A model generated the notes under the pieces. The model was not told where the DNA came from. It was given only the letters and a program-made list of their open reading frames with translations, and made no database searches. Source: a virus (taxonomy: Duplodnaviria > Heunggongvirae > Uroviricota > Caudoviricetes). Taken from it: a stretch of DNA of 5,201 nt. How positions within the stretch are numbered: position 1 is the first letter of the stretch; each line of letters starts with the position of its first letter. Shown piece by piece: positions 774-987 of this stretch. Position numbers and translations under genes: made by a program. The stretch lies in the IMG/VR virus record IMGVR_UViG_638341084_000014; one strand, given 5' to 3'.

Positions 774-783
774 ATATCAATAC

Positions 784-803
784 GGTTCTGGCGAGCCGCT
801 TAC
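784..803. repeat. Second IS66-end-like sequence (alternative IRR or subterminal repeat)
   Basis: GGTTCTGGCGAGCCGCTTAC shares GGTT.....GA..CGCTTAC with 968-987 and sits 11-30 bp after the tnpC stop codon. Confidence 0.45.
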
Positions 804-967
804 AGAAATGCGCGGGTACGACAGTGACTCGTCAAATCTCAGCTGTAGCACACGCAGGATCAATTCTGGATTATCTGCCAGTACCGCTTTTCGTGCATTC
901 ATCTTAAATGTCCTTTTACTGCGAAAATGGACATTAGTATCGGAAACAGGAAAGGGAGGCGAAAGAC

Positions 968-987
968 GGTTTAAATGATGCGCTTAC
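968..987. repeat. Candidate right terminal inverted repeat (IRR) of the IS66-family element
   Basis: The sequence GGTTTAAATGATGCGCTTAC ends in the IS66-type terminus CGCTTAC. The integrase codons (…KDI) resume immediately at 988. A related 20-mer, GGTTCTGGCGAGCCGCTTAC, lies at 784-803. Confidence 0.55.

Follow-up and report, generated by a model that had tools for sequence, protein, structure and literature searches.

An inverted joint between two IS679 copies beside a prophage integrase fragment in Escherichia coli B171

Two IS679 copies and the neighboring integrase fragment

The stretch of DNA analyzed here (the window) is the entire contig AAJX02000092.1, 5201 bp in length, from the draft assembly GCA_000167895.4 of Escherichia coli B171. 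The left end of the contig falls inside the tnpC gene of a copy of IS679, an element of the IS66 family that was reportedly first described by Han et al. in 2001, from this same strain. Intact copies of IS679, such as those in the sequences that we refer to as L001 and L002 (RefSeq label “IS66-like element IS679 family”), are 2704 bp long and are organized as tnpA–tnpB–tnpC, with tnpA at positions 86–736. Their tips read GTAAGCG...CGCTTAC and their target duplications are perfect and 8 bp long; such 8-bp duplications were found at five reference copies, in L001, L002, L014, L015 and L024. The stop codon of tnpC lies 30 bp from the right tip, and each intact copy examined joins its target exactly at the tip of the right terminal inverted repeat (IRR). 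Tips of the GTAAGCG type and a tnpA–tnpB–DDE organization are features of the IS66 family, which also includes members, denoted tIS66, in which additional DNA separates the transposase gene from the right end (PMC12888890). For IS679 itself, a passage in PMC6778807 cites Han et al. 2001 (J Bacteriol 183:4296).

Positions 1–803 of the window align to IS679 1899–2704 on the same strand with 99.6% identity. This copy, denoted Y, contributes the 3′ part of tnpC (1–773, plus strand; IS679 1899–2674), with the stop codon at 771–773. The encoded protein is an IS66 DDE transposase, as judged both from its identity to the annotated tnpC product of IS679 and from the Pfam matches of the open reading frame (ORF) at 72–773 to DDE_Tnp_IS66 (E = 5e-64) and DDE_Tnp_IS66_C (E = 1e-16). 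All three differences from intact IS679 are single-nucleotide deletions within the first 55 bases, and positions 58–803 are identical. The deletions lie in homopolymers within 1–57 (AAAA to AAA, CCC to CC and CC to C) and break the reading frame, which is why tnpC looks frameshifted at the end of the contig; from their nature and position, they are most likely sequencing errors from read tails rather than the mark of a pseudogene. The gene is followed by the right terminal 30 bp of Y (774–803, plus strand), with the IRR at about 779–803 and the tip ...GCCGCTTAC at 803. These 30 bp are the same as the right end of the intact copies, where they directly adjoin the 8-bp target duplication, and the terminal CGCTTAC at 803 matches the IRR of those copies.

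Immediately to the right, positions 804–987 correspond to IS679 positions 184 to 1 on the opposite strand, with 185 of 185 positions identical to the left end of the copy in L001. This second copy, denoted X, is a left-end remnant on the minus strand, comprised of the left inverted repeat (IRL, 963–987) with its tip at 987, the untranslated leader (903–962) and tnpA codons 1–33 (804–902). The 33 codons are identical to those of IS679, in which the start codon is at position 86, and RefSeq names the homologous stretch “IS66-like element accessory protein TnpA”. With its tnpA cut after codon 33, X would have been inactivated. Reading on the minus strand across the joint yields a chimeric ORF of 41 aa (777–902), in which TnpA residues 1–33 are followed by eight residues from the IRR of Y (…ISVSGSPEPY*). 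This ORF is on record as EDX27752.1, “transposase 3 [Escherichia coli B171]”, and its exact sequence is recorded on one contig only, that of the window. The 41-aa product had no match in Pfam and is probably non-functional. A scan of 700–1350 for promoters and terminators found nothing. The IRL of IS679 also holds an outward-reading ATGATG, which in the window opens a 68-aa ORF (975–1181, plus strand) that extends into the integrase fragment in the antisense direction; the same ATGATG would fuse in frame to the cut tnpA at the predicted reciprocal junction described below.

Beyond the tip of X lie the N-terminal 98 codons of the tyrosine integrase of an argU-site, DLP12-type prophage (988–1282, minus strand), cut by X. 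The ORF as called (971–1282, 103 aa) runs on into the IRL and thereby gains five IS-encoded residues (…CKRII*). The reconstructed, uninterrupted integrase is 387 aa long, and its remaining 278 aa are found in B171 on another contig, as EDX28669.1. B171 thus has both integrase halves, which is what would be expected if IS DNA lay between them, and positions 988–995 (AGATATCT) are presumed to be the target duplication of X. An ORF predicted for the junction between the IRR of X and the integrase was not on record in an exact-sequence look-up, a result that is uninformative. A candidate for the integrase remainder in another sequence (L164) was rejected, having a different truncation and containing no IS679. 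We infer that the integrase is disrupted, which would probably leave the prophage locked in place.

To the right of 987, the minus strand carries the integrase fragment, a gene for an excisionase-like helix-turn-helix protein and genes of the yfdT/yfdR/yfdQ/yfdP type. The same prophage is present in FDAARGOS_1059 (L001) at tRNA-Arg beside fimZ, and is 99.98% identical to the window from position 988 on. Further into the prophage, there is a perfect 13-nt direct repeat, TCCCCAACAACAA (4494–4506 and 4527–4539, 33 bp apart), just upstream of an ORF ending at 5069, and in the intergenic region adjoining it there is a 24-nt inverted repeat with 83% complementarity (4133–4156 and 4196–4219). Both could be regulatory elements or RNA features belonging to the prophage.

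The joint at 803/804

The heptamer CGCTTAC occurs twice in the window, at 797–803 and 981–987, both on the plus strand. The preliminary description had drawn attention to two sequences, 784–803 and 968–987, that finish in this heptamer 184 bp apart, and both are present at the positions that it gave. The top direct repeat returned by a repeat finder pairs 779–809 with 963–993 (31 nt, 71% identity, spacing 184). By itself, the heptamer is not significant, with two or more matches found in 20 of 200 shuffles; the case for a pair of ends is made by the identity to a known element, IS679, and not by counting heptamers. That the two tips form a direct repeat is due to the opposite orientations of X and Y: the IRL of one copy and the IRR of the other, which are terminal inverted repeats of the element, thereby have the same polarity. 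The flanking bases had also been described as alike. AGAAAT and AGATAT are indeed present outside the two tips, but they belong to two different target sites, and since a comparison of eight 8-bp duplications from other copies revealed no shared consensus, their resemblance is best taken as chance.

Two interpretations of these ends had been proposed. According to the first, the IRR is at 987 and 784–803 is an internal repeat, which describes one IS66-family element with a 3′ tail of about 215 bp. Relative to Y, the IRL of X at 987 does point in the direction expected of a right end, and tIS66 forms with extra DNA before the right end have been described (PMC12888890). However, when the window was aligned to reference elements, as had been suggested, the tnpC stop was found to be 30 bp from the IRR and not about 210 bp, in intact copies bounded by 8-bp duplications, and 804–987 proved to be 100% identical to the left end of IS679, including the start of tnpA. 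Moreover, none of 5426 complete E. coli genomes contains window positions 700–1100 without interruption; all matches break at 803/804. The reference copies thus refute the long tail as the normal structure of the element. In a variant of the same explanation, Y and the 184-bp tail would constitute a new mobile unit of 2888 bp that uses the IRL of X as a surrogate right end. The junction at 803/804 is absent from metagenome contigs and viral contigs as well as from the 5426 genomes, and with no other record of it, nothing points to movement of the extended unit, nor was a tIS66-like unit of this kind found to recur with a target duplication of its own. A single element reaching to 987 is therefore highly improbable.

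The second interpretation placed the end of the transposase-bearing element at 803 and assigned the adjoining 184 bp to another copy. The boundary and the presence of two copies are borne out by the alignments. The adjoining piece, on the other hand, is not a solo right end, as had been supposed, but an inverted left end (IRL, leader and tnpA codons 1–33), and it belongs to the same IS, with 100% identity. Two IS679 copies in opposite orientation meet at 803/804. The right-hand limit of the transposase-bearing IS679 is position 803, and 804–987 is an inverted left-end remnant, neither a right end nor a long tail.

We consider it probable that this arrangement arose by ordinary nested insertion, with X entering the integrase gene and the whole of Y then entering the tnpA gene of X. 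In this sequence of events, X would first have inserted into the integrase of the argU prophage, in the orientation that puts the IRL tip at 987 and the genes of X on the minus strand. Y would later have transposed into tnpA of X at IS679 177–184 in the other orientation, its genes being encoded on the plus strand and its IRR tip (803) abutting position 184 of X, 184 bp from the left tip of X. The presumed target is the 8-bp sequence at 804–811, AGAAATGC, the reverse complement of IS679 177–184; by analogy with the 8-bp duplications of intact copies, it would be repeated at the left end of Y, beyond the contig. The reciprocal junction would accordingly consist of the remainder of X, AGAAATGC and the IRL of Y, with the predicted sequence GTCTGCGCAGAAATGC/GTAAGCGCATCATTT, also given as GTCTGCGCAGAAATGC/GTAAGCGCATCATTTAAACC.

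That Y is joined at its exact IRR tip to position 184 of X is the signature of a joint made by transposase. We infer that X preceded Y and that ordinary transposition of Y, as a complete second copy, made the junction. The junction between X and the integrase (987/988) is found on at least seven other contigs, from other assemblies and read sets, while the ORF that spans the Y/X junction is on the window contig only. All of those contigs stop 26–77 bp inside the IS, and they therefore cannot date Y relative to X or show whether Y is present. The chimeric ORFs predicted at the reciprocal junction were absent from a collection of 15 billion proteins, and the predicted junction DNA was absent from viral contigs in an exact scan. 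An N-truncated TnpA of 170 aa, which is a less specific query, was found on seven contigs, and none of the six examined was from B171; this query did lead to the nest in L015 that is described below. An inverted insertion 184 bp from the end of a resident copy would create an inverted repeat of roughly 2.5 kb with a 176-bp spacer, and such a structure may be unstable.

The joint could alternatively be an error of linkage in the assembly, in which a junction between the IRR of Y and the interior of X is real elsewhere in B171, or comes from a chimeric clone, and the assembler crossed from one context to the other through the 184 bp common to all IS679 copies. The copy next to the integrase would then actually be intact. 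The window is a 5.2-kb draft contig that finishes within an IS, the read-tail errors in its terminal 55 bases suggest thin coverage, and, as noted above, no other record contains the junction. Its absence elsewhere is nevertheless expected, given that short-read assemblies of related strains break 26–77 bp inside the IS. Furthermore, a Sanger-length read would be much longer than the shared 184 bp, and reads anchored in the integrase should therefore span both junctions; a joint located exactly at an IS tip is beyond what an assembler alone can create. We thus regard an assembly error as very unlikely.

Nested and stacked ends elsewhere

It is commonplace for one insertion sequence to interrupt another copy. 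A complete nest of IS679 in IS679 is present in L015 (GCA_037957345.1, 1066–6481), where AGCAAAAC (IS679 200–207) flanks the inner copy and CAATGCAC the outer one. This nest demonstrates that IS679 transposes into other copies of itself, in this case 20 bp from the site in the window. Stacked ends were found at three other junctions. In ETEC plasmids (L011 3604–3703, the same as L013 11504–11603), the left-end remnant is 99 bp long and there is no target duplication. In the chromosome of strain M18 (L012 3604–3739), a remnant of 131 bp adjoins an ISCro1-like copy that is flanked by a 9-bp direct repeat. In IncI1 plasmids (L003 3604–3890, the same as L047 1063–1350), the remnant is 238 bp long, and a third IS66-type tip of 49 bp lies between, so that L003 has three stacked tips of the same polarity.

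In neither L012 nor L013 does the intact copy adjoin the rest of the interrupted one, and secondary rearrangements therefore do occur at such sites. In B171, too, the joint at 803/804 might be the product of an IS-mediated rearrangement rather than a simple nest, in which case something other than the remainder of X would lie to the left of Y. In one form of this explanation, the IRR of a resident IS679 was joined to the interior of X by intramolecular transposition, resulting in an inversion or deletion; in another, a single copy attacked its own left end and inverted most of itself. A joint at the exact IRR tip fits any event made by transposase, including these. The ETEC plasmid L013 has the same topology; neither of its candidate units has a target duplication, and the remainder of X is missing from the vicinity. 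The X remnant in L012 ends at the insertion site. However, ordinary insertion explains the best-resolved cases, namely the inner copy of L012 with its 9-bp direct repeat and the clean nest of L015. The ORFs predicted for self-inversion of a single copy are not on record, which is a weak argument since small ORFs are rarely called. To our knowledge, no self-inversion mechanism has been established for IS66-family elements, and this counts against the second form. Taken together, a rearrangement is an unlikely source of the joint, and nested insertion remains the preferred explanation.

The ISCro1-like element of L012 differs from IS679 in its left part. Its first 420 bp, a stretch that covers the IRL, the leader and the beginning of tnpA, do not align (L012 906–1320 compared with IS679 1–420), while from position 421 on the two elements are 95% identical. 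This indicates that closely related IS66-family members may differ by having mosaic left ends.

The integrase gene, too, has been hit elsewhere. Counting the site in the window, independent insertions of IS66-family elements (IS679 or an ISCro1-like element) are found at four different positions of this gene in different strains, and both orientations occur. The integrase pieces that surround such insertions are at 1146–1481 and 4185–5021 in L001, at 563–982 and 3686–4438 in L023, and at 740–979 and 3686–4615 in L024. The insertion in L024, with the duplication CTTTTATC at about window position 1043–1050, is only 55 bp from the junction in the window. Such recurrence could reflect either a target preference or selection for locked prophages. 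Stepwise accumulation of IS copies at the integrase, which the preliminary description had envisaged, is plausible in view of these independent insertions and of the 987/988 junction on contigs of other strains, with the order of X and Y deduced as described above.

Including the window, there are six independent junctions, located at IS679 positions 99, about 131, 184, 200–207 and about 238, together with the third tip, which is 49 bp from another. Their clustering within the first 300 bp is subject to ascertainment bias, as the queries could detect only events near the left end. In an unbiased survey of 120 metagenome contigs with an IRR tip, the right flank was IS66-like in 1–3 of 115 cases and the left flank in 0 of 15. 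The frequency of 1–3 in 115 is about that expected for random insertion into an element that makes up about 1% of the genome. The idea of demonstrably elevated self-targeting was accordingly rejected, as this survey offers no evidence that IS66-like flanks exceed the frequency expected by chance. A scan for the IRR tip in species-representative genomes gave three matches, too few for a survey. We give little credence to the idea that IS66-family elements are drawn to the tips, or to the first ≈300 bp, of resident copies, leaving stacks of ends with the same polarity as a first step toward tIS66. If it were true, the IRL of an inverted remnant could serve as a surrogate right end, providing a route to passenger-carrying tIS66 elements.

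Relation to known IS679 arrangements

The arrangement at 803/804 is well explained and corrects the annotation of the locus, and it is not novel. It explains two odd entries from B171, the 41-aa “transposase 3” and the 103-aa integrase fragment, and it illustrates why draft assemblies break at this locus. The repeated insertion of IS66-family elements into the integrase gene and into the left ends of one another is of mild interest with respect to target choice.

Both pieces of IS679 in the window are 100% identical to the reference element at the nucleotide level, outside the deletions at the contig end. Compared with the whole element, Y is cut by the end of the contig, and only the first 184 bp of X are present here. 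The closest counterpart of the nested arrangement is that in L015, where, as in the window, one IS679 copy interrupts another within the 5′ portion of tnpA, at 200–207 rather than at 177–184. The two differ in that the copies in L015 are in direct orientation and both junctions can be seen with their 8-bp duplications, whereas the copies in the window are inverted and one junction is visible. The stacked ends in L011/L013, L012 and L003/L047 share the topology of the window, in which an IRR tip is followed by an inverted, truncated left end of the IS679 type. They differ from it in their breakpoints, in the replicons on which they reside and, in part, in the family member involved, such as the ISCro1-like copy in L012.
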